Below, piece after piece: positions 51,701-63,240 of a DNA stretch of 64,000 nucleotides; the stretch's first letter is position 1; every line of letters starts with the position of its first letter. The stretch covers positions 679 to 64,678 of the forward strand of contig JAPPPQ010000048.1 in NCBI GenBank assembly GCA_028817435.1. The letters are read 5' to 3'. The DNA comes from Deltaproteobacteria bacterium (GTDB lineage: Bacteria > Myxococcota_A > UBA9160 > UBA6930). The notes under the pieces are model-generated. The model had not been told where the DNA came from. It did no database searches and worked only from the letters and a program-made list of their open reading frames with translations. Position numbers and translations under genes: made by a program.

Positions 51701-54700
51701 ATGCCGCTGTCTCCGGTGGCGCCGCGCAGCCGCAGGGAGAGGGTCTCCGCGCCCTCATTCAGGTTATCGGCGATAATCAGCACCTCGACGGTCTGCGCCG
51801 TTTGCCAATTGCCCGGCGTGAAAGTGAGCGGCGAGGTATCGCCGGTGCTGTAGTCGCCGCTCTCAACGCCGCGCAGCTCCCAGGCCACCGTGGCATTTGC
51901 AGTGGGCGCGGTGCCCGTCAAGTTGACGCTGAAGGTGACCGTATCTCCTTCATTCACCTGCACGCCGCCGGTGGCGTTGTCGCGGTCCATGGTGGCCGCG
52001 TCCACCGCTGCGGCGAAGCTGCGCGGCGACGCTGCGCTCATGGCAATCTGCACTTCGGCGCTCTGTTCGCCCACTGTGCTGCTGCGCTGCACCGTGCCGC
52101 CCCCCGGGCCGACGGCGGGGTTCTCAGCGAGAGTCACCCGCAGCACTTCCGCCATGCTCTCCGCCACGGCGTCCTGGGTAATCTCAATGCGGAGGGCGGC
52201 GCTGGTATCGCCCGCCGGAATCGTCAGGCTGCCGCCCGCGTCGTCAATGTAATCGCCGGCGGTTACATCGCCGCCGATGGTGTAGGAAACCGTCACCGGC
52301 GCGGCGGAGCCATCGGCGGCATCGTCCAGGCGAATGCTGAAGGTGACGATATCGCCCTCGCTCGCAGTGGCGCTGCCGCTCACAATGGAAACGCTGATGG
52401 CGTCGTTATCCGCCAGGCTGGCTGTGGCGGAAGCGTCCGCTTCCGCAACCGATACCGCAGCGCCAAAGGGGCGGATGGCAGAAATAGCGACGCGGAGGGT
52501 CTCCGCCGCCTCGTTCAAAGCGTCGTCCGCCGCCGTCAGCGTAAGATCTGCAAAGGCGGTGGTCATGCCTGTGACGGGGGGAATCTCGAGCACGCCGCCC
52601 GCGGGCGTGAAGGTGCAATCCACAGCCATGCCGCTGCCGCAGCCGGTGACGGCAAAATCCACCATGGCCGCAGCGCCCAGTTCTGCGCCGCTGATGGTAA
52701 TGCGGAACACGGCGGTGCCCGCCGCGCCCGCGCCGCCCTCTGCGAAACCGTCGCCGTCCTGCCGCGCAATGGCGGCCGTGCCGCTTTCATCATCGGTAAT
52801 GGAAACGCCGGCTTTTTCTCCCATGCCGGAGATGCGCCCGCCGCCGCCGCTCACCGCGCCGAGGGTAACTTCCAACTGCTCCGCCGCTTCCAGCAGCGAA
52901 TCGTCTGTGGCGCGGATTTGGATTTCGAGACTCGTTTGCGACGCGCTGAGGGTGAGGCTGCCGCCCGTTGCCTCTGCGCCGAGAGCGGGCTGCGCAATGT
53001 TGTAATCCCCCGCAGTAATTCCCGTGCCGCCCACGCCGAAGGGCACCGTGACATCTTCCACCGGCGTTGCGCCGCCCAGCGCCACCGTAAATGTGGCTGT
53101 TCCCCCCGCCTCGGCAATTGCGCCCGATTCTCCCGCTTTGCGGACAATGCCCACCGAAACCACATCATCATCGGTAATGGTCAGCGTGCCGCTGCGCTCG
53201 TTGGCGTCGGCATCCGCCCCCGCCAGCACAAAGAGCGGGTTGCCGGTGCCGGTAAGGCGCAGCACCAGGGTGCGGGAAGCCTGCGGCGTGGTGTTCTCCG
53301 TGGTTGTGACCGAAATGCCGTGGCTGCTGCTGGAGGTGACCGTCAATGCCAGCGGCGAAGTGAGGGCGCTGTAATCCGTGCCGGATGCAGCAGTGCCCGC
53401 AGGGAGTTCCTCGAAAGCCAGCATGAGCGCGCTGCTCGCCGGGCGCGTGCCGGTGAAGGTAAGTGGCAGCGCGGCCGTTTCGCCTTCTTCCACCTGCACA
53501 TCTCCCAAACTCACCGATACCGGATCGCTGACGGCAATGGAGCCCTGCGCGCTTTGGGCGCTACCGAGGGCGTAGGGTTCCGGATCGCTGGGATCTTGGG
53601 TAATTGCGCCCAGGGTAACGGTGTAAAACTCCTGCGGCTCGACGGCGCTGTCGTCGTAGATGGTAAGCGTGAAGGATTGACTGGCCGCGTTGGCGGCGAT
53701 GGTGACGCTGCCGGTGGGATAGCTGCTGCCGCCGCTGCCGAAATCCTCCGCTGCGGCGTCCTCGTCCATGGTATCCGGGGTGGCGGCCACGCTGTAAGCC
53801 ACCGTGACGGCCATGGGCGGCGCGGTGGTTATGCTGACCGTGAATTCGGCCGTGGCGCCCTCTGCGGTTCCCGCCGCCGATGCCTCGGCCGCAATGCTGA
53901 GGGTGGCCGGGGCGCGCACCTGCAGCGCAATGCGCTGCAGGCTCTGCAGACCGCCGGGGTCTTCGGCCGTCACCGTAATGTTCGCCGTGCCCGCCATGAG
54001 CGGCGTAATGGAGAGCGAACTGCCCATAATGCTCGCCGTTGCAACAGCGGTATCGGAGGATGCCGCGGTGTAGCTGAGCGTATCGCCGTCCGGATCGCTG
54101 AATGCGGTCGAAACATCCAGCGTGCGGACCGCGCCGCCGCCCACCAGCGCCGGGACGCTGATTGTGCCCTGCGCAACCGGCGGGCGGTTTCCGCCCATGC
54201 TCGCGCCGATGGTCCCCGTCGCCACGCTGCGCGTAATGTTGATTGCGCCGCCCTGCCAGGCTTCGGCGTCTTCGCCGCCCACCGCCGCAACGGATTGCAG
54301 GGTGACGCTGAATTGCTCGTTAGCGTCGGAGAGGGCGTCCATGAACAGGGGAATGCGCAGCACCGGATTGGCGGGCATGGCGGGGACGCTCAACCGGCCC
54401 GAGGGAAATGCCGAAGCCGCGCCATCGCCAAAATCGGCCGCAGTGGTCGTGCCGAGGCCCGCCACCGCCCAGTCCAGCAGCAGCGCGCCGCCGCGCTGCC
54501 CGCCGGTCATGGCAATGCTGAATTCGGCGAAATTGCCCTCTGCGGTGGGCGTGGCATCGGAAATGCTGATGGCGATGGGATCGTCATCCGTCAGCGTGGT
54601 GGTGGCCGAGGCGGGGACCGTGCCGGTTGCGCCGGCTGCGCCGGGCTCGACGGAAAGTGAAACGCTGAATTCTTCGGTGGCCTCGTTCAGCGCATCGTTC

Positions 54701-57057
54701 GTGGGCGTAATGGTAATGGTGTGCGGGCCGCTGTTGCTGGCGGGCCACATGATATTGCCGCTGACGGCCGTGAAATCCGCAGCCGAGGCGGGCGCTGCGC
54801 CGCTGCCGCCAATGGCCCAGTTCACCTGGGTCTCTGCGGCAAACTGCATTCCGGTGAGCGTCGCCATGTAGCTCAGCGCGCCGCCGTTTTCGGCGGCGCT
54901 GGTGGGGCCGGAGAGCGACAGCGTGCGCGTTGGCATATTGCCGCTGGCCGCAATGGTGAAGTAGGTGGGGGGATCGTCCCGAAAATTGGCGAGGACATCC
55001 GAGAAGGAAGTTGTGCGCAATGCGGTTGGGCCAGAGGCGCGCTCATCACTGGCGATCAGAACTGTTTCCGCTGCCTCCGTCGCAGCGTCTGCAACAACCT
55101 GAATTTGAACGGTGAAGGCAGTCTGCACATTTGCGGGAATGTGCACATTGAATCGCAGGCAGGGCCGATTTGTAGTGGAGATTGTACATCGGCCGGGCGC
55201 GACCCCGGAGACACGATCTCCACTGATGCGGATATCTGCGGCAGAGCTGATGGCGGCAGCGGCGCCCGAGACTGTTCGCGACAATTCGATATCTCCCGCC
55301 ATCCAAATTCCCACGGGAAGAAGGACTTCCCTGCGAGGTCCAGGGAGCATAGCGGCGACGCCGGGATCAAGGCTGGAAGGGGCGATGGTAAATTGCACCT
55401 CTACCGTCTCGCCCTCTTGCACCGTGGTGGTCCCCACATTTCCACTCCGGGAGGTAACCGTTTGATCGGCATTGACGATGCTGGTGGAGATATCCCAAGC
55501 ATCGTTCTGCCCAAGGGAAGAAAAATGACCTCCCGCCAGAATGCTGCCGGTGGCGCGGGATTTCAGCAGGCTGACGGTCCCCGGCATCGGGCTGCTGAGA
55601 ATGACATCATAGAATTCCTCGGCAGACTCGAATCGGGATTGCGTGCCCTCACTATCATCAGAGAATTCAATTGTGATGGTCTTGATCCGCTCGCGCTGCG
55701 CGTGCCGGAAGGTGAGCGTGCCATCGTAGGAAGTCATCGTACCGACATTGATTCTGAAATCGGTGTAGAAGCCACGCACATCGCCGGTGGGCGCGCGCAC
55801 TTCCGCATTGGGGGTTCCCGGATTCTGATCCGGCCCGACCCTCCAATTCACCGTGACATCCTGCGCCGGCGGATTCAGCAGCGTGACCGTGAAAGTCGCA
55901 GTCTCGAACTCTTCCCGCCGCAGCGCATTCGTCGCATCTATGCGCAGCTGCGGCGTGAGCTGGAAATCGTTGAAGGCGATGGCGGCGCTGGCGCTGGCGG
56001 CGCTGATATCCGGCGCGGGACTCAGGCCGCTGATGCTGCTCACCGTCAGGATGATGGTCTCTGCGCTCTCCTCCTCTATATCGTCGAGCAGCGCGAGCAC
56101 CACCTCTCCGCTGCTGCTGTCCGCCGCAATGGTCAGGCTGCCGCTCACCCCGTCCGCCGCAACGCTGCCGCCGCTGGTGACGCGGTAATCCATGCCCTGC
56201 GCGGCAGTGCCCGTGAGCGCCCAGTTGACCGTCGCCTCTTCCGTGCGCGTGCTGCCGCCAAATGTGATGCTGAAAGTGAGGGTGCCGCCCTCCGACACCT
56301 GCTGCGGCGTGGCCGAGACATCCAGCGTCACCTGCGCCCACCCCGGCGCGGCCCCCAGCATGAACGCCAGCACCACCCCGCCCAGCCGCAACGCCCCCGC
56401 ATGCACCCCGAGCCGCCCCAGCCGCGCCCGCAAGCCCTCTCCCCGCCGCGACCCAAGCCGCACGCCAGGAACTGCGATGGGGAGAGCGCCATGGAGCGCG
56501 GCGGAGGGCGCGCCGTTGGCCGCGGCGGGGCGAGCGCCGTTGATGGCGCCGTCGGCTGCGGCGGGGGGCGCGCCGTTGATGGTGCCGTTGGCCGCGGCGG
56601 GGCGAGCGCCGTTGGCCGCGCCATTGGCCGCGGCGGGAGGCGCGCCATTCACCGCGGCGGGGCGAGCGCCGTTGGCCGCGCCGTTGGCCGCGGCGGGAGG
56701 CGCGCCGTTGACCGGCGGCGGGGGCGGGTGCTCCGCTGCGGCGGCCGCGGGATCGGCGACCACATCGAAAAGCTCAATCTCAACCTCGCCGGGCGGCGGG
56801 GCGGCCGGCGCGGGGTCGGCGGCCGGGGCGTCCCCCGTGGGGAGAGACCAGGTGAAGGCGGGGCGGCAGGGGCGGCGGGGGCGCAGCTTCTCAAACAGGG
56901 CCAGGCCGGCGTCGCACAGCCAATTGAAGCGCGGGAAGCGCGGCTGCGGCGCAGCGGGCGCGGGAGAGCAATCCAGCAGGCCGGCGCGCAGAGGGCGCGC
57001 GGCGGACGGGGCGAAACCGCGCCCGCCGAACCCGGGCCCCGAGAAGCCCGCTCGCAT
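36763..57057 (-). CDS. Giant (~6,760 aa) surface protein. It has an N-terminal Pro/Ala-rich extension, a signal-peptide-like segment, dozens of Calx-beta-like repeats, one cadherin/Ig-like module, and a C-terminal autotransporter (type Va) beta-barrel.
   Basis: A single open frame with high third-position GC throughout. Repeated motifs include ALNEATEEFSVSLS, DDALNEAPEVFLVTI, GDNLNEAGEAFTVQISI and TLTDDDPIAISI. The C-terminus ends ...HQLRLNIELPF. The start is uncertain: the first ATG after the trpC-divergent intergenic region is at 57057, and an alternative GTG at 56463 lies directly before RLGSRRGEGLRARLGRLGVHAGALRLGGVVLAFMLGAAPGWA/QV. The listed ORF start at 58089 is antisense to trpC and was rejected. 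Confidence 0.85.
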   Translation of the reverse strand: MRAGFSGPGFGGRGFAPSAARPLRAGLLDCSPAPAAPQPRFPRFNWLCDAGLALFEKLRPRRPCRPAFTWSLPTGDAPAADPAPAAPPPGEVEIELFDVVADPAAAAAEHPPPPPVNGAPPAAANGAANGARPAAVNGAPPAAANGAANGARPAAANGTINGAPPAAADGAINGARPAAANGAPSAALHGALPIAVPGVRLGSRRGEGLRARLGRLGVHAGALRLGGVVLAFMLGAAPGWAQVTLDVSATPQQVSEGGTLTFSITFGGSTRTEEATVNWALTGTAAQGMDYRVTSGGSVAADGVSGSLTIAADSSSGEVVLALLDDIEEESAETIILTVSSISGLSPAPDISAASASAAIAFNDFQLTPQLRIDATNALRREEFETATFTVTLLNPPAQDVTVNWRVGPDQNPGTPNAEVRAPTGDVRGFYTDFRINVGTMTSYDGTLTFRHAQRERIKTITIEFSDDSEGTQSRFESAEEFYDVILSSPMPGTVSLLKSRATGSILAGGHFSSLGQNDAWDISTSIVNADQTVTSRSGNVGTTTVQEGETVEVQFTIAPSSLDPGVAAMLPGPRREVLLPVGIWMAGDIELSRTVSGAAAAISSAADIRISGDRVSGVAPGRCTISTTNRPCLRFNVHIPANVQTAFTVQIQVVADAATEAAETVLIASDERASGPTALRTTSFSDVLANFRDDPPTYFTIAASGNMPTRTLSLSGPTSAAENGGALSYMATLTGMQFAAETQVNWAIGGSGAAPASAADFTAVSGNIMWPASNSGPHTITITPTNDALNEATEEFSVSLSVEPGAAGATGTVPASATTTLTDDDPIAISISDATPTAEGNFAEFSIAMTGGQRGGALLLDWAVAGLGTTTAADFGDGAASAFPSGRLSVPAMPANPVLRIPLFMDALSDANEQFSVTLQSVAAVGGEDAEAWQGGAINITRSVATGTIGASMGGNRPPVAQGTISVPALVGGGAVRTLDVSTAFSDPDGDTLSYTAASSDTAVATASIMGSSLSITPLMAGTANITVTAEDPGGLQSLQRIALQVRAPATLSIAAEASAAGTAEGATAEFTVSITTAPPMAVTVAYSVAATPDTMDEDAAAEDFGSGGSSYPTGSVTIAANAASQSFTLTIYDDSAVEPQEFYTVTLGAITQDPSDPEPYALGSAQSAQGSIAVSDPVSVSLGDVQVEEGETAALPLTFTGTRPASSALMLAFEELPAGTAASGTDYSALTSPLALTVTSSSSHGISVTTTENTTPQASRTLVLRLTGTGNPLFVLAGADADANERSGTLTITDDDVVSVGIVRKAGESGAIAEAGGTATFTVALGGATPVEDVTVPFGVGGTGITAGDYNIAQPALGAEATGGSLTLSASQTSLEIQIRATDDSLLEAAEQLEVTLGAVSGGGGRISGMGEKAGVSITDDESGTAAIARQDGDGFAEGGAGAAGTAVFRITISGAELGAAAMVDFAVTGCGSGMAVDCTFTPAGGVLEIPPVTGMTTAFADLTLTAADDALNEAAETLRVAISAIRPFGAAVSVAEADASATASLADNDAISVSIVSGSATASEGDIVTFSIRLDDAADGSAAPVTVSYTIGGDVTAGDYIDDAGGSLTIPAGDTSAALRIEITQDAVAESMAEVLRVTLAENPAVGPGGGTVQRSSTVGEQSAEVQIAMSAASPRSFAAAVDAATMDRDNATGGVQVNEGDTVTFSVNLTGTAPTANATVAWELRGVESGDYSTGDTSPLTFTPGNWQTAQTVEVLIIADNLNEGAETLSLRLRGATGDSGIATATASVDITASNTISYAIGADQSSAETNGATITFSVTLSGASAGSAGGAVRIPVSVASSSTATAVDDYSISPSALVFAAATQDSAAVLSQDITLTIAGDSLSEAAEIVRIELGAPTTGAGGGMFSATRANAALTISDNDNLSISVEGPDAAVAEGSDAVFTLTIAGGVPSADLTLSYTLSGTGIAAADIDAHNSLSSTFTITRTAVEADPAGEVSLSLGITDDADPEAAETLTLTLDSVTAGAGGGAVSASGSDTATISASDPLSVSVARMDSGDLVEGAADDSGAAVFRVSISGGVSLAAVSVPFSVSGMGITAADYEIESPSGGTLNIGSGVAMGDITIRALSDNLNEAAETLQLTLQTPSGGGGLAPSLGTATASAVIAKSDPATLNLAVIRGGGDFSSGGIREGQAAIFRVTLSVPSAADISVNWATNRVAHWNQNRFTERHTNSNPEFTTAGGVTLNGPLNARGTVTILAGTVSRQFTLTPAVDGLPELQFGNFNELFNVAVTGETVSMGGGDVTRGTVSVQAAIQRSSATPRSVTVQLESTTDRDTSADGVQVDEGDTVTFRISLVGAVAGMPAPTANVTVNYAITGAESTDYMVTGGNMASGTLTFTPSNWQTAQTRAVMIADDALNEGAESITLRLSNASGGGSGGTALAEDSAAVEIRPSDPATLRMARTSPAMLSTEITEGSAATFRVTLSAASEGPVNFDFSAAVDMQQNTGPANNAANPDLSAPGATATMAGGIAGMGSIAAGMTTADLVITAVEDGRAEMAEQFSVNLSAPAPGANAGPVSLDAAPANRSASARIASSTAVTRNFALSGPGGVDPSNVNEGSAAQFTITRTGPSLPPGTMLEITWNAAPAVSTQDNPLNPTEAADLSAAAGSVTFSGSDSSETFSITAMGDALNEGTETFTVSISARSGAWTLGDPVTTTITDDTADEIVATVSGGGNVAEGANAAITVALSGGTPTAAVVLSYTLGADANNGTVDADAATDLTDSGNGAFTIALADLTTPPHTFNIAAVDDALNEAPEVFLVTIDAVSSAGTASARGSPRTFTITDGDDISVSIDQASGEPATVDEGQPARFTVTLAGPSSGSAAEITVPYKVETSGTGYTPTDAGNGSLRIAAGQTSGTITLQMPLSATLGAGDDDQTVTVTLTGDEPATMDNDEGPTAASGGGNVARSSVPAAQSAEVMVNFVDAARTLSVTGPATINENDDATGGASGAYTVTLTGMAFTAASTTVTWTLTHVGTADADFVAASDRSGSVTFSSSDGNNSTKNFNIRAAGDNLNEAGEAFTVQISITDPDADGGTDYGAAASTTIADDDSITATLSGGGSVAEGSNAVVTVTLSGGTPTAAVVLRYTLGADANNGTVDADTAMDITDGGGGSFTIATTDTAPHSFNIAAVADAINEAPEVFLVNAGTVSSTGTAGAAGSPQTFTITDGNDITVSIARASVTQATVDEGQSANFTVTLSGASGGSVADITVPYMVAISGTGYAPTDSGGGSLTISARQTSGTITLQMPLSATLGATSDDQTVTVTLAVDDATTPSMDEGPTAASGGGNVARSSTPADQSAQVAVNFVEAARTLSVTGPATINENDDATDGASGAYTVTLTGMAFTAASTTVTWTLTHVGTADADFVAASDRSGSVTFSSSDGDTSAKNFNIRAAGDNLNEAGEAFTVQVSITDPDADGGTDYGAAASTTISDDDPIAVGVTTTTAVSEGGNAVLNVDLGAIPSRDVTVAYTLGNTSATTDVDATPSGMGADLTDTSGGSITITAAGGVATGSITVGIGADNRNESAETFTVAITAAGISGAHGAASVASGGTQTFTIAESDPITVSIARARSTMSTVAEGQSAEFTVTLAGASAGSAAEITVPYAVTPSGSYTPTDSGSGSLRIAAGQTSGTITLQMPISATLGAGDDDQTVTVTLAGDDATTPSMDEGPTAASGGGNVARSSTPADQSAQVAVNFVEAARTLSVTGPATINENDDATNGASGAYTVTLTGTAFTAASTTVTWTLTHGSTTDADFVAATDRSGSVTFATSDGNNSTKNFNIRAAGDDLNEAGETFTVQVSIANPNTDGGTDYGAAASTTIADDDPVTVAITRASGSGAVNEDSGALNFTVTLAGGGRASGVSTVVPFTISGTGITAGDYDITAPAPAPATTATGHSITIAHGSTTGAITVNITDDMLNEATESLSVTGAAASASGLRLTGAGAGGVEYTSSGNTVSVPITDGDPISVSIAVSGTDAAATAAGHQVEEGGEATFLVTLSKASASQVTVPYAIDTGPGNVQAADYTDSGGGRLMIAAGSTSGTIRISLAEDADTQSENLTVTLATSGYMAAGVIARSNTPGEQSATAEVITRSNERTLTLRPAVAGPYAEGNSNTMRTFYVEFGAGVAFSGNTDVTWTITPGATNPTEAGDFAATTGTVTIPGGSTAQAFFDITIVGDNLNEANENFSINLSAPDSQTDIGDAVELTINDDDAITYSISGGGNVAENGGNATFVFALSGASEGAVTIPFTLSGTAQCAAASDMTRDCTTPSPLTVTVAAGATSENLSIAIHNDTVNEAAETIIVSLGMTPTLGAEAGEVTRTTTTAMQSATATITDNDEIRVSLVIVPSSVKEGDSAVFNVTVYSTPDVITRSAPVQVTYAIAGSGTSRASSADYRDDTVGATKTASGGTLTIPANAQTMPIRLAILSDSRQEMAEGLGVTITAASSAGVVHLGGTSDPTSTPSDTHLINQEVTIPANAQFAYTVSVSVPSGVLTEPRVRTTSTDKAVFTLSVTQDSGSAAARSGTATIAYTISGSAAGTDYIAPAGYTASTMRGEVSLPEGDNSVTVTFPIAADTLNEGDETIIFTLRAITGAAAGNLGRAANAADRSATATIDENDALAVLVTRDTANFNEGATATFSVRLQPMDSTAILSTNFTMDYTLGGVEAADVRGETGSGLVAGTLGGTLEIAVGSSMGAIEIRAVADNLNEAAESLSLNIACDAPTTVGPASIATALCDRDTGMLRIPPSTISASDPITISIAAPAPDSVSEGSDAVFAVTLSGAIAGSEAAIMLPYSVADFTQANTDATNAPNTGANPDIEGGAAGGGLSGQRITIAAGTVSAMIRIPLQQDGLAEGAETFTVTLGTPVPGSGAGAVSLGASQASATIPANAAFTRFLSVTIGAQDSTARTANVAEGEAAQFNVKLEGAAPEDGMPVTVDWSASGTSETADHGCTSGTFSFTAVGTQPMSCPIRADGLNEAAETLIFTLSNPMGGGTGGVGIRGTAQASATATISASDPITYSITGPAGAFTEGAMSQGAARTLDFSVLLTGRSEGEVVIPFEVDSSTQTGGTARGGVAGDVVRDFTTPTPLSVRIAAGQLSGTIAIEVHNDRRNEAPESIVIALLPETHGSFSTGAEAGAVTRIATAAAQRATAMITDDAADALVLSIARISGTEVREGQSAVFEVSIPSGGADPVSSAALCVPYTIGGNGISVSDYTDTTPRAANAPCMGMLRIAAGASTGRITLEIRPDGTAEAAETLRVTLGTPTSAGAARVGANGMAQVVIPANAAAAHIVNISAAAAQVAEAPDANAIFNLSVVDATPRTRNITITYQIDSSSTAAAVDYTAPYTGASGMLSIAAAGTIAQISIPITNDGLNEGAETLVLRLLSATGGSNHQSAVGTATATVTLMPSDPLTAVLSRIGSGDLVEGGTGGAESAMLRVSLSGAELSADVSLPWRITGAVAGAVTAADLSLSANAGRVSGTLGGTLTIAQTANPTEITITLSAVADNLNEAAEMFTLALLDEAPPRPASERPGSAGPVMVSRTPGQASAALQLASSDPLTVGIAAPNPASLREGQIAVFTVTLSGASAGSAAAVMIPWSAQIAAQQNAAGEPNTDALPDFCFLPAASDSCSPRTGNAVLANAAGMLGPQQLVIAAGQTSAQLRIQALFDNLDEGTTDEQLTLSLQAPTAAAGGGTVALAAAANRSAAVDIVNVNALRTLAVATPAPVQESANIVFEVELEGMAPEQEFSVPWTLVPGSASGPQQSGLAREIGRNHGGAHPDDPDIGMPSVSSGAVGGPLSGTLIFPAGSLNSQSVTVPTLQDPLNEGRESLRLELGPVPETAGGGGSGGIPATQVVARRASAEIMPSDPIMASIVRESSALVDGGEAVYRVSFGCADDSASSAGGCIPIVSTTRVRVSYTWTIAGTSMQDDVTLESGATDGEIRVPMSATADVADDDIVELMVNLDDAEAVDRDGDPLPPGESPMVPRPDPAPIVTQIADWTLELTPNGGQVFEGSTLVLTATLNGGRSLDTALRVAWQVSVSGVLRAESEDFAGEDGAALMSFPSGSFEFASGAVPGSTHSFRIRVRADGDSNAADPVDQPERFQVTLMRARGNLNMAVAVDTQPAEFTIPARQSSELAQRRGARLRTLLGVLDRSSAQLATDVISARMGRSPGPPPWGSLSLAGRELLRGGAAGAREDAKDAGGAAAEGIGLALYGAAGRGGADSGLGGAAVGGAAVGGGAGIPGASGAAAFGGLGAGLSQHANRWQGSELPSLAELLNGSSFNARSEGIAPNWTGITGVVIWGAGGATQLEGAPLRGERTLSYEGDNYAGFLGMESMLGDSLMAGVALGYSGGDIEFSESAAAGDASDVAMRGNIENQRWSVHPYFGWWLTPELQTWMVLGWGTGDTTIEERENTVGAETLRRAEGGSSMWMASGGASGNVPLGPFVDLALRVSATRVHSELESTRFADITTGTAVGGTPLPKQRTRSLRLGGEAEVSSLLALGGDLRLRPFASAEVHMDRGDDVIRDATRSREIAFDLGGGVVLTWPSRGLDLRLEGASQVNDTGHEEVRFSLDMGYDRGADARGFTFALQSALAQTALQSGWPATTPHSTPVGSSLNAAGQHSLSGELAYGAALHPFGRPGLLTPYAAFSLGAQRRYATGLRFQSPRGLKIRLEGATENASTPNHQLRLNIELPF
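36766..37962 (-). other. Autotransporter-type beta-barrel translocator domain of the giant protein
   Basis: VVIWGAGGATQLEG...YAGFLGMESMLGDSLMAGVALGYSGG...WSVHPYFGWWLTPELQTWMVLGWGTGD. The region shows alternating hydrophobic strands and a terminal aromatic residue (Phe). Confidence 0.7.
45400..48900. repeat. Three tandem ~1.15-1.17 kb coding super-repeats (about 385 aa, roughly four Calx-beta modules each) inside the giant gene
   Basis: The marker string atcatcgttttcgttgatgg recurs at 45721, 46891 and 48043 (spacing 1170 and 1152 bp). Protein blocks ARTLSVTGPATINENDDAT...NFNIRAAGDNLNEAGEAFTVQ occur three times, nearly identically. Confidence 0.85.
53917..54185 (-). other. Single cadherin-like / bacterial Ig-like module embedded in the Calx-beta array
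   Basis: PVAQGTISVPALVGGGAVRTLDVSTAFSDPDGDTLSYTAASSDTAVATASIMGSSLSITPLMAGTANITVTAEDPGGLQSLQRIALQV. Confidence 0.5.
56500..56716. repeat. 60-bp tandem repeat (two near-perfect units plus one or two diverged units) encoding an N-G-A-P-rich 20-aa repeat
   Basis: Units 56593-56652 and 56653-56712 differ at only a few bases. On the minus strand the in-frame translation is VNGAPPAAANGAANGARPAA x2, followed by variants. Confidence 0.85.
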
Positions 57058-57312
57058 GAGAACAGGGCTCTTCACTTGCCAGCTCAGCCAGTAACGCGCT
57101 CCGCGCTGGCGGCGCGGGGCGCGGCCTCCCCTATCCGTCCTAATGGCCAATGGCCAGGTTCCTCGAATGGGGGAAGCTTTCAGTTCAGCGGGCCGAAACC
57201 TGCCCAACTTTTTCCCGCCGCGCAACCCCCAGGGAAATTTTCCCGTCCCCCAGGGGACGCCCTGACAGCCTGGGGCAAAAGAAACGCTACTCTCCGGGAA
57301 AAAGGAGGCGCC
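57058..57312. promoter_or_regulatory. Divergent intergenic region between the giant gene and trpC. It presumably holds both promoters.
   Basis: This is the only clearly non-coding, AT-richer stretch here. It contains CCCCCAGGG motifs at 57226 and 57248, and AAAGGAGG 5 nt before the trpC ATG. No -35/-10 pair could be assigned with confidence. Confidence 0.4.
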
Positions 57313-58104
57313 ATGCTGTTGGAAATGGCCGCAAACCGGGGCAAGGAGTTCCGGCTGGGCCGGGGAAACCGGGGCCAGGGCGACGCCCCCGCCCCCCAAT
57401 CCCGGGGGTTCGAGGAAAGGCTGCGGCGGCAGGCGGCCCCCGGCATTATCGCAGAGCTGAAGAGCCGCTCCCCGAGCCAAGGCGCAATCCGGGCGGATCT
57501 CGACCCCGCCGGGCTGGCCCGCAGGCTCGAGTCTTCCGGCGCGGCCGCCCTGTCTGTCATTACGGACGCAAAGTATTTCGGTGGCAGCCTGGAATGGCTG
57601 AGCGCCGCCCGGGAAGCCTGCAGCCTCCCCGTGTTGCGCAAGGATTTCATCGTTGACCCGCACCAGATTGACGAGGCCAAAGCGGCGGGCTCGGACGCAG
57701 TTTTGCTGATTGCGCGGCTTCACCAGGAGCCCGGCACACCGCCGCTGGAAGAGCTGCACCGCAGGGCGCGGGAACTGGAAATGGAAGCCCTGGTGGAAGT
57801 GCGCACCGAACGGGAAATGGCCGAGGCCGCCCGCATCGGGGCTACTTTGATCGGCGTGAACGCGAGAAATCTGGAAGATGTGCGGCAGGCCCCGGATTTG
57901 TCCATATTCGAGCGGCTCGCTCCGCTGGCCCCCCCGGAGGCCCTGCTGGTTGCAGCCAGCGGCCTCCGCTCCGGAGCGGATATTCACCGCATGGCCCGCG
58001 CCGGGGCCGGCGCATTTTTGATTGGCGGGGAAATTATGCAGGCGCGGGAACCGGGCCTGCGGCTCGCCGAACTGATTGCGGAAACGCAAGCGCTTTGCTG
58101 CTGA
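57313..58104 (+). CDS. trpC: Indole-3-glycerol phosphate synthase
   Basis: RBS AAAGGAGG. Motifs IIAELKSRSPSQG, LRKDFIVDPHQIDEAKAAGSDAVLLI and IGVNARNL. Confidence 0.88.
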   Translation: MLLEMAANRGKEFRLGRGNRGQGDAPAPQSRGFEERLRRQAAPGIIAELKSRSPSQGAIRADLDPAGLARRLESSGAAALSVITDAKYFGGSLEWLSAAREACSLPVLRKDFIVDPHQIDEAKAAGSDAVLLIARLHQEPGTPPLEELHRRARELEMEALVEVRTEREMAEAARIGATLIGVNARNLEDVRQAPDLSIFERLAPLAPPEALLVAASGLRSGADIHRMARAGAGAFLIGGEIMQAREPGLRLAELIAETQALCC

Positions 58105-59420
58105 AACCGCCCCGGGGCACGCGGGACTTTTACCCGGAAGATTTGCGCCTGCGGGAATGGCTGTTCGGGCGCTTCCGCGGGGTTTCGCTGCGCTTCGGCT
58201 TCGAGGAGGTGGATGCGCCCGTGGTCGAGACGGCGGAACTGTGCGAGCGCAAGGCGGGGGAGGAGATTGCCGGGCAGGTCTTTTCGATTCTCCCGCCGGG
58301 GCAGCGCGAGGGCCGGGAGCGCTTGGTGCTGCGGCCGGAGTTTACGCCCTCGCTGGCGCGCATGATCTATGCGCGGCGGGGGCAACTGCGGCTGCCGCTG
58401 CGCTGGTTTGCGCTGCCGCAGTGCTGGCGCTACGAGCGGCCGGGCCGGGGACGCCGCCGCGAGCACTATCAGTGGAATATGGATATTTGGGGCGAGCCGG
58501 ATGTGACCGCAGAGGCGGAACTGCTGGCCGCCATTTTCGCCGCGCTGGATGACTTCGGCCTGCCGCCCGGTGCGGTGCGCATGCGCATCAACCACCGCGG
58601 CCTGCTGGACGAAATGCTGCGCGAGCGCTTTTTGCGGGAGCGGCCCGAGGCATTCAAGCCGCTTTGCATTGTGATTGACAAGCTGGAGAAGATTGGACGC
58701 GAAGCGGTGGAAGAGCAGCTTTGCGACCCCGCCGGGCCGCTGGGAGAAGCGAGGCTTTCGCAGCCGGATGCGCAGGAGGTGACCGCCATGCTGGAACTGC
58801 GCGGCATTGAAGAGGTGGCGCGCAGTCTGGGCAAGCGGGCGGAAAATTCTGCCGCGATTGCCGAGCTGCGCCGCCTGTGGGAACTGCTGGACAGCACCGG
58901 GCTGGCCGGGCGGGTGGAATTTGACGGCTCGGTGGTGCGCGGGCTGGCCTACTACACCGGGGTGGTCTTCGAGGCCAGCGATGCCGCGGGGCGCTTCCGG
59001 GCCATTTGCGGCGGCGGGCGCTACGACGGGATGCTGAGCGAGCTGGACCCCGGCGCGGGCAAGGCGGGCGCGAAAGGATTGCCCGCGGTGGGCTTCGGCT
59101 TCGGCGATGCGGTGATTGTGGAACTGCTGCGGGCGGAAAATCTGCTGCCGAGCGCCGCGCGGCGGCTGGATGCGGTGGTGTATCCCATGGGAGAGACAGA
59201 GCGCCCCGCCGCCATGCGCCTGGCGGCGGCATTGCGCGCCCAGGGGCGGGCGGTGGAACTGCTGCTGGGCACGCCGAAGGCCCGGCGCGCCTTTGCCGAC
59301 GCCGACCGGGCCGGGGCGGCGCGGGTGTATTTGATCGGCCCGGACGAGCTGGCCCGCAAGGCCGTGCGCGTAAAGGAACTGGCCAGCGGCGCAGAGCACG
59401 AGGAGCCGCTGCCGGGCTGA
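58095..59420 (+). CDS. hisS: Histidine--tRNA ligase
   Basis: TTG start with a 10-nt overlap with trpC. Motifs KPPRGTRDFYPED, RYERPGRGRRREHYQWN (motif 2 region), GGGRYDGM, and a C-terminal anticodon-binding domain. Confidence 0.9.
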   Translation: MLLKPPRGTRDFYPEDLRLREWLFGRFRGVSLRFGFEEVDAPVVETAELCERKAGEEIAGQVFSILPPGQREGRERLVLRPEFTPSLARMIYARRGQLRLPLRWFALPQCWRYERPGRGRRREHYQWNMDIWGEPDVTAEAELLAAIFAALDDFGLPPGAVRMRINHRGLLDEMLRERFLRERPEAFKPLCIVIDKLEKIGREAVEEQLCDPAGPLGEARLSQPDAQEVTAMLELRGIEEVARSLGKRAENSAAIAELRRLWELLDSTGLAGRVEFDGSVVRGLAYYTGVVFEASDAAGRFRAICGGGRYDGMLSELDPGAGKAGAKGLPAVGFGFGDAVIVELLRAENLLPSAARRLDAVVYPMGETERPAAMRLAAALRAQGRAVELLLGTPKARRAFADADRAGAARVYLIGPDELARKAVRVKELASGAEHEEPLPG

Positions 59421-59451
59421 GCGCGGCGCGGCGCGGGGTTTGCCGCAACGC

Positions 59452-59537
59452 GCGGCGCGGGGGTAGACTGCGCCCATGGGCGGGTGGAGCGCGCGCGAGA
59501 GCCTCGAGCTCTACCAGGTGGCGAGTTGGGGGCGCGG
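59452..59537 (+). repeat. Direct repeat copy 1: the speA upstream ~24 nt (imperfect) plus the first 62 nt of speA (perfect), ending in a truncated 25-codon reading frame
   Basis: 59476-59537 is identical to 61303-61364 (ATGGGCGGGTGGAGCGCGCGCGAGAGCCTCGAGCTCTACCAGGTGGCGAGTTGGGGGCGCGG). The sequences diverge immediately afterwards (TAAGCAGG versus CTACTTCG). Confidence 0.9.
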
Positions 59538-59675
59538 TAAGCAGGGGGGCTAAACTGAGCAACCGGCCGGGCTGTGTAGAAAGCACCCCCGCCAGACCGA
59601 GCAGCGGGCCACCTCCCCTGCCCCCGGCCCGGCCAGAACGAACGACGCCTTCACTTCACAGAAAGGAACCCGACC

Positions 59676-59933
59676 ATGGATTTCGCAGCCACTTGGCAAG
59701 GACGGGGCGGGACCGATTTCCGCGGGCTCATCCAAGCCGGAGCAGAAGCCGAGCCCCAAGTCATCCTGTACCTGACCGATGGCTTCGGCACCCTCCCACA
59801 GGAGGTCCCGAACGTGCCCATCGTCTGGGTGCTGAACCGCCAGTGCTGGACCGGAACCGACGGGACGCTCTACGACTACAACTGCAAGGAACTCCGCCGC
59901 TTCGGGGAAATCACCTCGATGCAAGACCCGTAA
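59676..59933 (+). pseudogene. 85-codon ORF resembling only the C-terminal half of a VWA-like (DUF2201-type) domain. It is probably a gene remnant.
   Basis: GRGGTDFRGLI...VILYLTDGFGTLPQEVPNVPIVWVL matches the distal GGGTDF / TDG / P-x-WVL blocks. The MIDAS DxSGS part is absent. AAAGGA lies 9 nt upstream of the ATG. Confidence 0.4.
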
Positions 59934-60054
59934 ATCCAGACCATCAGCTGCTAGACAACCTTCATTGCAACACCTGTCATCGGACTCTCGCGTATGCACC
60001 TCGGAGTCCCCCGCGGCTTCGAAATCTCCGGGCTGGCCTTCTACGCGCTCGGCC

Positions 60055-60172
60055 ACCGACGCCGATCGGGCTAGGGCGACGCGGGTGTATTTGATTGGCC
60101 CGGAGGAACTGGCCCGCAAGGCGGTGCGGGTAAAGGAGCTGGCAGGCGGCGTAGAGCACGAGGGGCCGCTGG
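60055..60172 (+). pseudogene. Diverged duplicate (~88% identity by eye) of the last ~118 nt of hisS
   Basis: It aligns without gaps to 59295-59412. It translates to DADRARATRVYLIGPEELARKAVRVKELAGGVEHEGPL versus the native DADRAGAARVYLIGPDELARKAVRVKELASGAEHEEPL. The stop codon is not conserved. Confidence 0.8.
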
Positions 60173-60284
60173 GCGGTTTGCAGGGTGGCAGGAGCGTGGT
60201 ATGGTGGCTGGGGGGGGCCGAGAGGGCTGAGTCCAGCGAGGGCCGCAGAGGGCGGCGTGCGGGGCCTCAGGCCGGGAAACCCGC

Positions 60285-60308
60285 GCACACCAGCCCCGCT
60301 TGGTGTGC
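60285..60308. promoter_or_regulatory. Inverted repeat (8-bp arms, 8-nt spacer) 47 nt upstream of the small ORF. It is a candidate operator or stem-loop.
   Basis: GCACACCA-gccccgct-TGGTGTGC. Confidence 0.25.
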
Positions 60309-60355
60309 TGCCCCAGTGGTGCCGGGAAAGCATGGCGCCTCAAGGAGCAACGAAA

Positions 60356-60553
60356 ATGGAAAACAAGGAGAACGCTCCCCTCTGGCACCACCACGGAAAC
60401 GCATCGCCCAACGTGATCCCGGTGGCGGCAGAGCAACTGGCGAGAGGGGAAGACGTCGTGTACGGAGACGGGCGAGGAAACGTCTACCGGAAGACGCCGA
60501 GCGGCGACGTGCGAGTGATCAGGAAGGAAAAGCAGAACGCAATCCCGGCCTGA
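60356..60553 (+). CDS. 65-aa hypothetical protein, candidate antitoxin partner of the downstream kinase
   Basis: AAGGAG lies 8 nt upstream of the ATG. The ORF stops 7 nt before the next ATG. No family was recognised (MENKENAPLWHHHGNASPNV...). Confidence 0.45.
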   Translation: MENKENAPLWHHHGNASPNVIPVAAEQLARGEDVVYGDGRGNVYRKTPSGDVRVIRKEKQNAIPA

Positions 60554-60560
60554 GGATCCC

Positions 60561-61238
60561 ATGAGCACCGAACCGCCCGTGATGATCGCTGTGACCGGAG
60601 CCAACGGGGTCGGGAAAAGCACCCTCGCCGAGAAAATCTCCAAAGAGCGGGGAATGAAATTCATTTGCCCCGACGTGCCACAGGGCGAAAGCCGACATGA
60701 GGAAACGCTGGCTCTCGCAGCACAGCACATCGCCCGGCGGGAAAGCTATGCCCACGACGACGTCTTCCGCAAGACAAAGGTAGAGCAATCCATCCTCAAG
60801 GCCAAAGAGGCAGGATACTGGATTGAGGCGCATATCGTGCTGGTTAGCGGACCGGGAACATCCATTGAACGGGTAAGCATACGAGGAGAAAAGGGCGGCC
60901 ACCTGCATAGCGAGGAATACATCCGGAAGCACTACAGAGAGGCCCTGAGATATGGAAGGCGCATCGCCAGAGAGATTGCAGACGAAGTCCACGTCTACAA
61001 CAACGAAGGACAGGATATCCGGAAGGTCATGATCTCCCGCGACAACCACCTGGAAATCATCGAGAGCGTCCCGCCGTGGATCGAGTCCATCAGGGACGCC
61101 ATAGAGAAAGGAATCCAGCAGCGGAAAAACAGAGAACTCGTAGCGGCAAGGGAACACCGGAAGGCCATGGCGTCCCACAGGCGAAGCCAAGCGGTCCAGA
61201 GCCCCCAGAGGACCCGAGACGACGGGCGAGAACTCTGA
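60561..61238 (+). CDS. Zeta-toxin-like P-loop kinase (COG4185/AAA_33-type)
   Basis: GAGGA lies 4 nt upstream. N-terminal Walker A VMIAVTGANGVGKSTLAEKI. The size (225 aa) and all-alpha/beta pattern resemble zeta/PezT-like kinases. The gene is AT-richer than the flanks. Confidence 0.6.
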   Translation: MSTEPPVMIAVTGANGVGKSTLAEKISKERGMKFICPDVPQGESRHEETLALAAQHIARRESYAHDDVFRKTKVEQSILKAKEAGYWIEAHIVLVSGPGTSIERVSIRGEKGGHLHSEEYIRKHYREALRYGRRIAREIADEVHVYNNEGQDIRKVMISRDNHLEIIESVPPWIESIRDAIEKGIQQRKNRELVAAREHRKAMASHRRSQAVQSPQRTRDDGREL

Positions 61239-61277
61239 AATTTCTCCGACGTCGGCCAAGTCAGAGCGGCGCGCCGC

Positions 61278-61364
61278 TTGCGGCGGGGCTAGACTTTCGC
61301 CCATGGGCGGGTGGAGCGCGCGCGAGAGCCTCGAGCTCTACCAGGTGGCGAGTTGGGGGCGCGG
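61278..61364 (+). repeat. Direct repeat copy 2 (the intact speA start)
   Basis: See copy 1. The perfect part is 61303-61364. Confidence 0.9.
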
Positions 61365-63240
61365 CTACTTCGACATTGACGCAGCCGGGCGGGCGCTGGT
61401 GCGCAAGGCGGCGGGCAGCGAAGACCATGTGGCGCTGCCCGCGCTGATTGCCGATATGCGGGAGCGCGGGCTGCGCACTCCGCTGCTGCTGCGCTTTCCC
61501 GATGTGCTGGCCGGCCGCGTGCAGCGCCTGGCCGAGGCGTTTCGCCAGGCCATGCGCGAATACGAGTATCGCGGCGCGTTTCGCGGCGTGTATCCCATCA
61601 AGGTGAACCAGCAGCGGCAGGTGGTGGAAGAGGTGGTCTCTTGCGGCGCGGCCTTCGGCATTGGCCTGGAAGCCGGCAGCAAGCCGGAACTGCTGATTGC
61701 GCTGGCGCTGCTGGATACGCCCGAGGCGCTGATTATCTGCAACGGCTACAAAGATCTCGCCTACATTGAAACCGCGCTGCTGGCGCAGCGGCTGGGCCGC
61801 ACGCCGGTAATTGTAATTGACCGCATTCAGGAACTGGGCCTGGTGATGAAGGCGGCGGCAGAGCTGGGCATTCGCCCCCACCTGGGCGTGCGCGCGCGGC
61901 TCGCCAGCCGGGGCGCGGGCAAGTGGATCGAGAGCACCGGGGACAAATCCAAGTTTGGCCTGAGCGCGGCGGAAATTGTCGAGGCGGTGGACCAACTGCG
62001 CCGCGAGAATATGCTGGATTGCCTGGAGCTTTTGCATTTTCATATTGGCTCGCAGATTACGAACATTGGCGCGCACAAGGATGCGCTGCGCGAGGCGACG
62101 CGCATTTTTGCCGGCCTGCACGCGCTGGGCGCGCGCCCCCGCATTTTGGATGTGGGCGGCGGGCTGGGCGTGGATTACGACGGCTCGCAGGCCGATTTCC
62201 ACTCTTCTAAAAACTACGGCGTGCAGGAATATGCCAACGGCGTGGTGGCGGCCATTCAAGAGGTTTGCGACGACGCCGGCATTGCGCACCCCGATGTGGT
62301 GACCGAGGCCGGGCGCTGGATGGCGGCGCACCACTCGCTGCTGGTCTTCGATGTGCTGGGCGTGAACGAGGTGCGTCCGGTGCGCGCGCCCAGGCGTCCG
62401 CCCGCGAATTCTCCCCGCGTGCTGAGCGAGTTGTGGGAGGTGTGGGAGAGCATTGCGCAGCCGGGCGGGCGCGGGCGGCGCAGCCGCGCCCGGGCCAATC
62501 AGCTTCTGGAATCGCACCACGACGCCCTGGAACTGAAGGAGAACGCCGGCACGCTCTTCAACATGGGGCAGCTTGATCTGCGCGACCGCGCGCGGGTGGA
62601 GCGCCTGTTCTGGGCCTGCTGCGATGCGATTCAGCGCGCGGCCCGCGCGCTGCCCGATGCGCCGGAGGAACTGCAAGAGCTGGAGCGCGGTTTGGCCGAT
62701 ACCTACTATGTGAATCTGTCGGTGTTTCAGAGCGCGCCGGACCACTGGGCGGTGAAGCAGCTGTTCCCCATCATGCCCATTGAGCGTTTGGACGAAGAGC
62801 CCACCCGGCGCGGCGTGATTGCCGACCTGACATGCGACAGCGACGGCCGCATTGACCAATTCATTGATCAGCACGATGTGAAGAATGTGCTGGAATTGCA
62901 CGCCCCCGACGGCCGCCCCCAGCACCTGGCGATGTTTCTGGTGGGCGCTTACCAGGAGATTTTGGGCGATTTGCACAATCTGTTCGGCGACACCGACGCG
63001 GTGCATGTGCGCATTTGCGGCCCCGGCGATTACGAGGTGGAGAAGGTGGTGGCCGGCGAAGACATCCGCGATGTGCTCGACTATGTGCAGTTTGAGGAAT
63101 CCGCGCTGCGCGAAAAGGTGCGGCGGCTCTCGGAGAACGCGCGGCGGCGGGGGGACATCAGCCTTTCGGAAGCCACGCGGCTGCGCCGCCGCTACGAACA
63201 GGGACTGGCCGAATACACCTATCTGCTGCCGGAATCCTGA
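61303..63240 (+). CDS. speA: Biosynthetic arginine decarboxylase
   Basis: N-terminus YQVASWGRGYFDI, YPIKVNQQRQVVEEV (PLP-Lys region) and LHFHIGSQI. The 645-aa length is typical of SpeA. Confidence 0.9.
   Translation: MGGWSARESLELYQVASWGRGYFDIDAAGRALVRKAAGSEDHVALPALIADMRERGLRTPLLLRFPDVLAGRVQRLAEAFRQAMREYEYRGAFRGVYPIKVNQQRQVVEEVVSCGAAFGIGLEAGSKPELLIALALLDTPEALIICNGYKDLAYIETALLAQRLGRTPVIVIDRIQELGLVMKAAAELGIRPHLGVRARLASRGAGKWIESTGDKSKFGLSAAEIVEAVDQLRRENMLDCLELLHFHIGSQITNIGAHKDALREATRIFAGLHALGARPRILDVGGGLGVDYDGSQADFHSSKNYGVQEYANGVVAAIQEVCDDAGIAHPDVVTEAGRWMAAHHSLLVFDVLGVNEVRPVRAPRRPPANSPRVLSELWEVWESIAQPGGRGRRSRARANQLLESHHDALELKENAGTLFNMGQLDLRDRARVERLFWACCDAIQRAARALPDAPEELQELERGLADTYYVNLSVFQSAPDHWAVKQLFPIMPIERLDEEPTRRGVIADLTCDSDGRIDQFIDQHDVKNVLELHAPDGRPQHLAMFLVGAYQEILGDLHNLFGDTDAVHVRICGPGDYEVEKVVAGEDIRDVLDYVQFEESALREKVRRLSENARRRGDISLSEATRLRRRYEQGLAEYTYLLPES

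Follow-up and report, generated by a model that had tools for sequence, protein, structure and literature searches.

How does a stretch of DNA of about 1.8 kb come to lie between two neighboring genes while carrying partial copies of both of them? This question is posed by an islet between hisS and speA in contig JAPPPQ010000048.1 of a bacterium deposited as a deltaproteobacterium, which we studied within a 64,000-nucleotide (nt) stretch of that contig (here called the window; all coordinates are positions of the whole window, and all features listed are on the + strand). The host belongs to an uncultured, high-G+C lineage whose order-level relatives are labeled as Binatia, Myxococcota, or deltaproteobacterium metagenome-assembled genomes, and its own bin comprises 67 contigs (2.8 Mb, 92% complete, 66.8% G+C). 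Comparison with contigs of the same species, of sister species, and of other genera confirms that the islet is a real polymorphism at a hisS-speA hotspot, with empty, short, and long alleles present in one species. As to its origin, we give a probability of about 50% to the reading that recombination recurs at the hisS-speA junction in this genus, making it a hotspot, and that the window holds a nonautonomous cargo islet of two modules, which probably entered by a single crossover.

The islet is framed by two intact genes. Upstream, hisS (58095..59420) encodes 441 amino acids (aa) with the Pfam domains tRNA-synt_His and HGTP_anticodon and overlaps the preceding trpC; downstream, speA (61303..63240) encodes 645 aa with the Pfam domains Orn_Arg_deC_N, Arg_decarb_HB, and Arg_decarbox_C. 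The 3' end of the resident hisS forms repeat A (59296..59411), whose last bases are a GCCGCTG core (59405-59411). After the hisS stop comes a 50-nt spacer, sp (59421..59470), which also occurs in the empty allele and is contiguous there with speA, and then repeat B1 (59471..59537), a nonfunctional copy of speA from position -5 to +62 with its ATG at 59476, after which the sequence departs from speA and continues into module X at TAAGCAGG. The remnant of X (59538..60055) encloses an 85-aa open reading frame (ORF; 59676-59933) and is followed by A' (60056..60171), a foreign copy of the hisS 3' end that terminates in the same GCCGCTG core. Next are a segment that we call the tail (60172..60222), which in alignments matches what follows the hisS core in two sister species, R and S; an imperfect hairpin (CTGAGTCC...GGCCTCAG; 60227..60270); and the two genes of module Y, a 65-aa ORF that is a conserved small partner of the kinase (60356..60553) and a gene for a 225-aa zeta-like P-loop kinase (60561..61238). 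A degenerate hisS end with a spacer variant, sp' (61246..61297), which is of the R/S type and resembles, with gaps, the hisS stop and the spacer behind it, leads into B2 (61298..61364), the functional speA 5' end with the speA ATG at 61303.

The degree of identity between these paired segments is uneven. B1 and B2 agree at 67 of 67 nt, forming a direct repeat that spans speA positions -5 to +62, and the insert between the repeats measures 1,827 bp. A' and A are 88% identical over 116 nt without a gap and differ by eight synonymous and six nonsynonymous nucleotides, the latter all conservative in the protein, while sp' (∼50 nt, immediately upstream of B2) is ∼80% identical to sp. An earlier note, made from the DNA letters alone, had described this same order (hisS, spacer, copy of the speA start, VWA-like piece, hisS-end copy, kinase, speA) and a gap-free inner hisS copy of ∼88% identity with mostly synonymous or conservative changes; both descriptions hold, with the perfect repeat, given there as 62 nt, measuring 67 nt. 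Had B diverged to the same extent as A, a perfect stretch of 67 nt would be expected with a probability of 0.88^67, or about 2 × 10^-4, so that a perfect repeat beside an 88% repeat lies far beyond chance. A local tandem duplication, which we considered as a source of these copies, is rejected on the same figures (88% for A/A', about 80% for sp/sp', and 100% for B1/B2). Both modules (62.9% G+C in X and 60.0% in Y) fall below hisS (69.7%) and the genome in G+C content, and a search of the 2.8-Mb assembly, which is 92% complete, gave no third copy of either A or B.

To place the window among the alleles of its species, we gathered contigs by exact-protein look-ups with the kinase, SpeA, and HisS across ENA, NCBI, Logan, and JGI. 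The short occupied form, arranged as in the window, was recovered in eight contigs (L038-L040, L044, L056, L057, L059, and L060), some of them 100% identical to the window and others ∼99.2% identical with single-nucleotide polymorphism (SNP) haplotypes of their own. Five contigs (L051-L054 and L058) carry the empty form, in which trpC and hisS are followed by 55 nt and then speA; compared with the window, they lack exactly 59538-61364 (1,827 bp) and retain one copy of B, and they encode an identical SpeA protein between flanks of ∼99% nucleotide identity on both sides. The empty site of about 55 nt that the earlier note proposed to look for in relatives is thus present, to the nucleotide, within the species itself. 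A long occupied form of 5.3 kb (L043 and L042) has 3,494 bp more at window positions 59683-59686. Empty and occupied alleles occur in separate samples from the same projects, and the speA flank of one empty contig (L058) is nearly identical to that of an occupied one (L040). The look-ups with the kinase and SpeA brought up no conspecific contig that has a Y-only allele. At speA position -4 (59472), every occupied allele has G, as do B1, B2, R, S, and the outgroups, and all five empty alleles have A, which indicates that the latter form a single allele class and are not fresh deletions of the sampled occupied alleles. Two positions in the spacer (59423 and 59438) set the window haplotype itself apart from every other conspecific allele.

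Could the duplication be a chimera, assembled from two strains that co-occur in one metagenome? The source genome is a bin of 67 contigs, and contigs of some assemblies do break within the 67-nt repeat. Against this, the same order of parts recurs in at least nine assemblies, made independently and drawn from ENA, NCBI, and Logan, that differ in project, assembler, and SNP haplotype, with contigs of up to 269 kb, and clean empty and clean long alleles exist separately. On the strength of these many assemblies and haplotypes we reject a chimera, which would have been an artifact of a single assembly, as wholly improbable.

The junction in related organisms shows what is ancestral at this site. 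Of 27 genomes that represent other genera of the family or order, 26 have hisS immediately upstream of speA and in the same orientation, the two genes being 8 to 180 nt apart; outside that order, they are not neighbors. When 40 genomes of the family or order were searched for parts of the islet, only hisS-end matches were returned. Taken together, these observations identify the short junction as the deep ancestral state and occupation as a feature of this genus. Its sister contigs, ∼92 to 93% identical to the window in speA and in the kinase pair, show three further states. In lineage R (L050, L048, and L049), the hisS body runs to GAGCCGCTG and is followed by the tail (GAGCGGTTTGCAGGG...), the 65-aa gene, an internally deleted kinase gene, a clean hisS-end remnant (GCCGCTGCCGGGCTGA), the spacer, and speA. 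This junction looks like a single module Y inserted at the hisS core, with a short repeat of the core on its far side. In lineage S (L047 and L147), we find a tandem array of modules bounded by hisS 3' fragments of 20, 31, 66, or 256 nt. The S array begins with a gene for a GIY-YIG-like 134-aa protein, followed by about 20 nt of the hisS end with tail and hairpin; it continues with genes for 56 aa and 225 aa, of which the 225-aa gene closes with the final 31 nt of hisS, then with a methyltransferase-like gene (NPPW motif) and a 228-aa gene followed by 256 nt of hisS and a diverged tail, and finally with genes for a 406-aa protein (HNH-like N terminus) and 113 aa, followed by 66 nt of hisS with tail and then by Y. 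A further contig, L064, carries the same 134-aa gene, then a 28-nt copy of the spacer plus speA positions +1 to +18, and then Y, spacer, and speA. Across these four lineages, all eight hisS-side boundaries are joined after GAGCCGCTG, and the speA-side copies end either at +62 (in the window and in L065, described below) or at +18 (L064).

Two features of the S array of L147 are worth describing. The 225-aa ORF (L147 746-1423) has a C terminus (...HEEPLPG*) that consists of the last 31 nt plus stop of the displaced hisS end. The 306-aa protein with the NPPW motif and its 228-aa neighbor (L147 1505-3098) are likely a restriction-modification pair; no Pfam match is recorded for them in the contig look-up, and no dedicated family search was run.

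The earlier note had suggested that the inner segment of the islet derives from the hisS-speA junction of a relative, and its hisS copy, cassette, and spacer are indeed collinear with the native R/S junction, that is, hisS, tail, 65-aa gene, kinase, and speA. The segment is, in addition, a mosaic. Compared with the hisS end of R, the resident one (A) shows 91% identity and A' just 79%. The tail and Y that follow A', by contrast, reach 93% identity with R and S, close to the 92.6% found for speA. As the similarity breaks at GCCGCTG, A' and tail-Y differ in history and meet at the core, in a way that resembles the internal boundaries of the S array. Of the spacer copies, sp' is nearly identical to the R/S spacers and sp is not. 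B differs between this species and R or S at three sites, at all of which both B1 and B2 carry the resident bases. We searched for the donor of A' with a chimeric HisS query limited to its last 44 residues, which gave no significant match. DNA scans of a metagenome collection with A' (allowing for wobble positions) and with a 21-mer of the tail returned 0 matches each, in a collection that evidently lacks these short contigs, as L047 and L050 contain the tail and went unmatched.

How, then, may the islet have formed? In the reading that we favor, X and Y would first have been assembled as a tandem array at the hisS 3' end of a close relative, with joints always after GAGCCGCTG, as seen in the sister species. 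A circle would then have formed in which X, the hisS-like fragment A', the tail, Y, and sp' were joined to the initial 62 nt of speA. A single recombination event would have taken place between this circle and the speA 5' segment on an empty chromosome in which hisS, 55 nt, and speA followed each other. Such a crossover would have doubled the 67 nt and kept speA whole, with new sequence upstream of it. In the window strain, a 3.5-kb deletion has reduced X to a stump. The junction of such a circle would read sp'-B followed by TAAGCAGG, and the junction left by excision would read sp-B followed by CTACTTCG. The circular intermediate, the gain into an empty site, the enzyme responsible (from the host's homologous recombination pathway, or a recombinase supplied in trans), and the stabilization of the islet by its kinase pair are parts that we infer from the arrangement. 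What is observed is that direct repeats bracket the insert and that the repeated segment is single in the empty allele, as Campbell-type integration leaves them. A single crossover would account for the exact empty allele, the lack of a Y-only allele, the short junctions elsewhere in the family, and the existence of both long and short forms. A circle entering by one crossover in the speA 5' end, as the earlier note proposed, is partly supported: the perfect repeat, the empty allele, and the collinear sister junction agree with it, and the resident-type B copies, the mosaic inner segment, and the age of the joint between the speA fragment and X fit it less readily. We would refine that model in one respect, suggested by the sequences of S: the donor segment appears to have been an array already, with two modules put together at the hisS core.

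Several observations weigh against the single crossover. Simple recombination with DNA of a relative does not predict that both B copies are of the resident type; the incoming B must have been identical already or been corrected afterwards, possibly by mismatch correction at integration, by later conversion, or through repeated cycles within the species. The difference at position -4 indicates that gain and loss are infrequent, and the sampled alleles give no direction to the change. Both sister species carry Y, which by parsimony suggests an ancestor that already had it, and neither a circular form nor a donor genome was found among the assembled contigs, nor a recombinase in the short islet, the long islet, or the S modules. 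An account that starts from this Y-bearing ancestor would have X, with a Y-less junction that it had captured, as an element that runs from A' through core, stop, spacer, and the first 62 nt of speA to X, integrate at the GCCGCTG core of hisS, with the empty alleles arising by deletion between B1 and B2. It explains why sp' is nearly identical to the R/S spacers while sp is not and why the break in similarity to R falls exactly at the core (91% for A and 79% for A', with tail and Y, at 93%, behaving like speA); it is also in keeping with the repeated use of the core in the S array and with a B1/X joint that travels with X, as in L065. Its cost is that a foreign B1 matching B2 at 67 of 67 nt needs gene conversion, that a Y-only ancestor is needed of which this species has yielded no sample, that the A at -4 in the empty alleles is unlike the product of B1 × B2 deletion in any sampled occupied allele, and that short junctions are the rule in all other genera. 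We consider this account rather doubtful.

The regularity of the hisS-side joints raises the further question of whether the islet is a cis-mobilizable element on which a tyrosine or serine recombinase encoded by a helper elsewhere acts, using the speA 5' segment, the hisS core, or both as its attachment (att) site. A joint fixed after GAGCCGCTG at eight boundaries looks site specific, an array whose internal boundaries resemble attP is what accretion by a single integrase family typically produces, and a hairpin recurs next to the tail. Yet no recombinase is found on any module seen, the assembly contains no third copy of either repeat, and the speA-side ends of two independent events differ (+62 in the window and +18 in L064), so that the crossover is not fixed on that side; we regard a recombinase of this kind as unlikely. 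The earlier remark that no recombinase gene lies on the islet withstood Pfam, PADLOC, and NCBIfam searches, which gave none among the ORFs of the short islet, the long islet, or the S-type modules seen. Likewise, a helper element with a matching attP was not found in the 2.8-Mb assembly, as judged by the lack of a third A or B copy, in a search that was not exhaustive at the level of the population. A more general idea, which we put forward as speculation of low probability, is that hisS-speA serves as a recombinase-free cassette exchange site, where modules bearing short copies of the ends of both flanking genes move between strains and sister species as circles that are taken in and released by host homologous recombination. 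If true, the gene ends would work as an address-label system that builds defense and toxin-antitoxin arrays without a dedicated integrase. Compared with all of these, entry of a preassembled two-module circle by a single crossover in speA remains the reading that we prefer.

A transposon or insertion sequence is rejected, as there is no inverted repeat joining the islet ends and no transposase family, and the duplication is 67 nt long. No integron integrase was found by Pfam and NCBIfam scans of the islet proteins; one hairpin is seen at two module boundaries. This hairpin (CTGAG(G/T)CC...GGCCTCAG, with an inner stem GCCGC...GCGGC) follows the tail in two lineages, at window positions 60227-60270 and at L147 366-410, and occurs once in the whole assembly; a REP-type repeat spread across the genome is rejected as its source, since the hairpin is confined to this locus. 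The S-type copy in L147 folds far better than shuffled sequences (z = -3.7), and the hairpin could be a terminator or an arm of a recombination site. Promoter and terminator scans of the locus returned nothing informative.

The long alleles reveal what X was before its deletion. Their X encodes a 616-aa multipass membrane protein, a 382-aa protein, and a 230-aa DUF2201 lipoprotein. The 3,494-bp deletion in the short form runs between two TCGC tetranucleotides, leaving 4 nt of microhomology at 59683-59686, and the 85-aa ORF of the window, which matches DUF2201 (a VWA-like C-terminal piece) in Pfam, is therefore a fusion made by the deletion (MDFA|ATWQ...). The VWA-like piece is thus the debris of a larger element, and the 85-aa ORF and the partial hisS and speA copies should be a warning for annotators, being scars and not genes. 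The X proteins gave no recombinase or defense-family match in Pfam, PADLOC, or NCBIfam, and their sole other relative in 5.8 billion sequences is contig L065, at 92% nucleotide identity. The left end of L065 has the same joint between the speA fragment and X, decayed by indels, from which it follows that this joint predates the 100% identity that B1 and B2 now show. In the same genome and outside the window, contig C22 (226842-230220) holds a three-gene paralogue of the long-form X, encoding 600, 285, and 215 aa at 28 to 33% identity in the same order and followed by a 425-aa gene. This three-gene set is a conserved operon, and its presence at C22 marks X as ordinary cell envelope cargo and not as mobility machinery.

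Module Y probably encodes a toxin-antitoxin or addiction pair. Its 225-aa kinase matches Pfam Zeta_toxin with 28.5 bits (cutoff, 22.3) and also AAA_18. An AlphaFold 2 model of it (pLDDT, 86) has AvrRxo1-ORF1, PezT, and zeta toxin as top fold matches, with a weak TM score of about 0.53, followed by generic small kinases; a search of the PDB by sequence alone gave no significant match. The 65-aa partner belongs to no family found in Pfam, PADLOC, or NCBIfam. An ORF of 59 to 66 aa precedes kinase homologues in three unrelated contexts, among them a run of small phage-like ORFs (L062) and a position between an AAA_15/21 ATPase gene and a ResIII helicase gene (L063), and in lineage R the small gene is retained where the kinase is internally deleted. 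The pair shares with epsilon/zeta, PezAT, and AvrRxo1-ORF1/ORF2 a P-loop kinase with a Zeta_toxin match, a small gene directly upstream, and maintenance in mobile or defense contexts. It differs from them in that the kinase is only ∼15% identical, with the low TM score given above, and in that the 65-aa partner has no detectable family. It is reasonable to suppose that this putative toxin-antitoxin or defense pair stabilizes the islet.

How does the islet compare with known integrative systems? In the Campbell model, a circle integrates by a single crossover through a shared segment, as in phage lambda or suicide plasmids. The islet resembles such integrants in that the insert carries a segment identical to the target, the ends are duplicated as direct repeats, and the empty allele has one copy, and it differs in that no replicon or phage is present, the segment held in common spans just 67 nt, and the circle is a reconstruction. 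Accretion arrays made up of ICEs (integrative and conjugative elements), integrative and mobilizable elements (IMEs), and cis-mobilizable elements (CIMEs), such as those at fda in Streptococcus thermophilus and Streptococcus salivarius, likewise hold recombinase-less cargo arranged in tandem at an essential gene's 3' end. CIME arrays and the hisS arrays both have modules bounded by gene-end copies, joints at one position (on the hisS side, in the arrays here), and variation between strains. Unlike in CIME arrays, the window insert is bracketed by 67 nt from the 5' end of the other flanking gene, the speA-side joints are not fixed, and no integrase-bearing partner is seen at hisS-speA. The fda 3'-end arrays of ICEs, IMEs, and CIMEs in S. 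thermophilus and S. salivarius are described in PMC7563491, and tycheposons, which target tRNA genes, encode a tyrosine recombinase, and have been shown in circular form, are described in Prochlorococcus (bioRxiv 10.1101/2020.12.28.424599). Tycheposon islands and the hisS-speA islet have in common successive integrations, partial copies of the target gene, variable cargo, decayed remnants, and an occurrence in uncultured or streamlined marine bacteria; unlike tycheposons, the islet has no tRNA target, tyrosine recombinase, or circular form in evidence. The islet is an accretion of nonautonomous integrative modules, in which incomplete copies of the flanking genes mark the modules, and not a new kind of element. 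It offers a clean natural example of one short intergenic site that is empty, briefly occupied, or fully occupied in different members of a species and built up into arrays in sister species, and it lends itself to studies of how small cargo, such as toxin-antitoxin pairs, restriction-modification genes, and nucleases, comes to accumulate beside essential genes without a visible recombinase.

Variation near the locus is not restricted to the islet. On the hisS side, the N-terminal end of a giant Calx-beta adhesin gene and the sequence upstream of it (window 52500-57260) are only 82 to 97% identical, with indels, to the contigs L051-L053 and L038-L039; the trpC-hisS-speA stretch beside this gene is ∼99% identical among the same conspecific contigs. 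On the speA side, a second variable spot lies 3 kb downstream, where the window's species has a CoA-ligase gene and lineage R has, just after DoxX (L048/L146 3876-5371), genes for an N6/N4 methyltransferase and a Pab1-type restriction enzyme.

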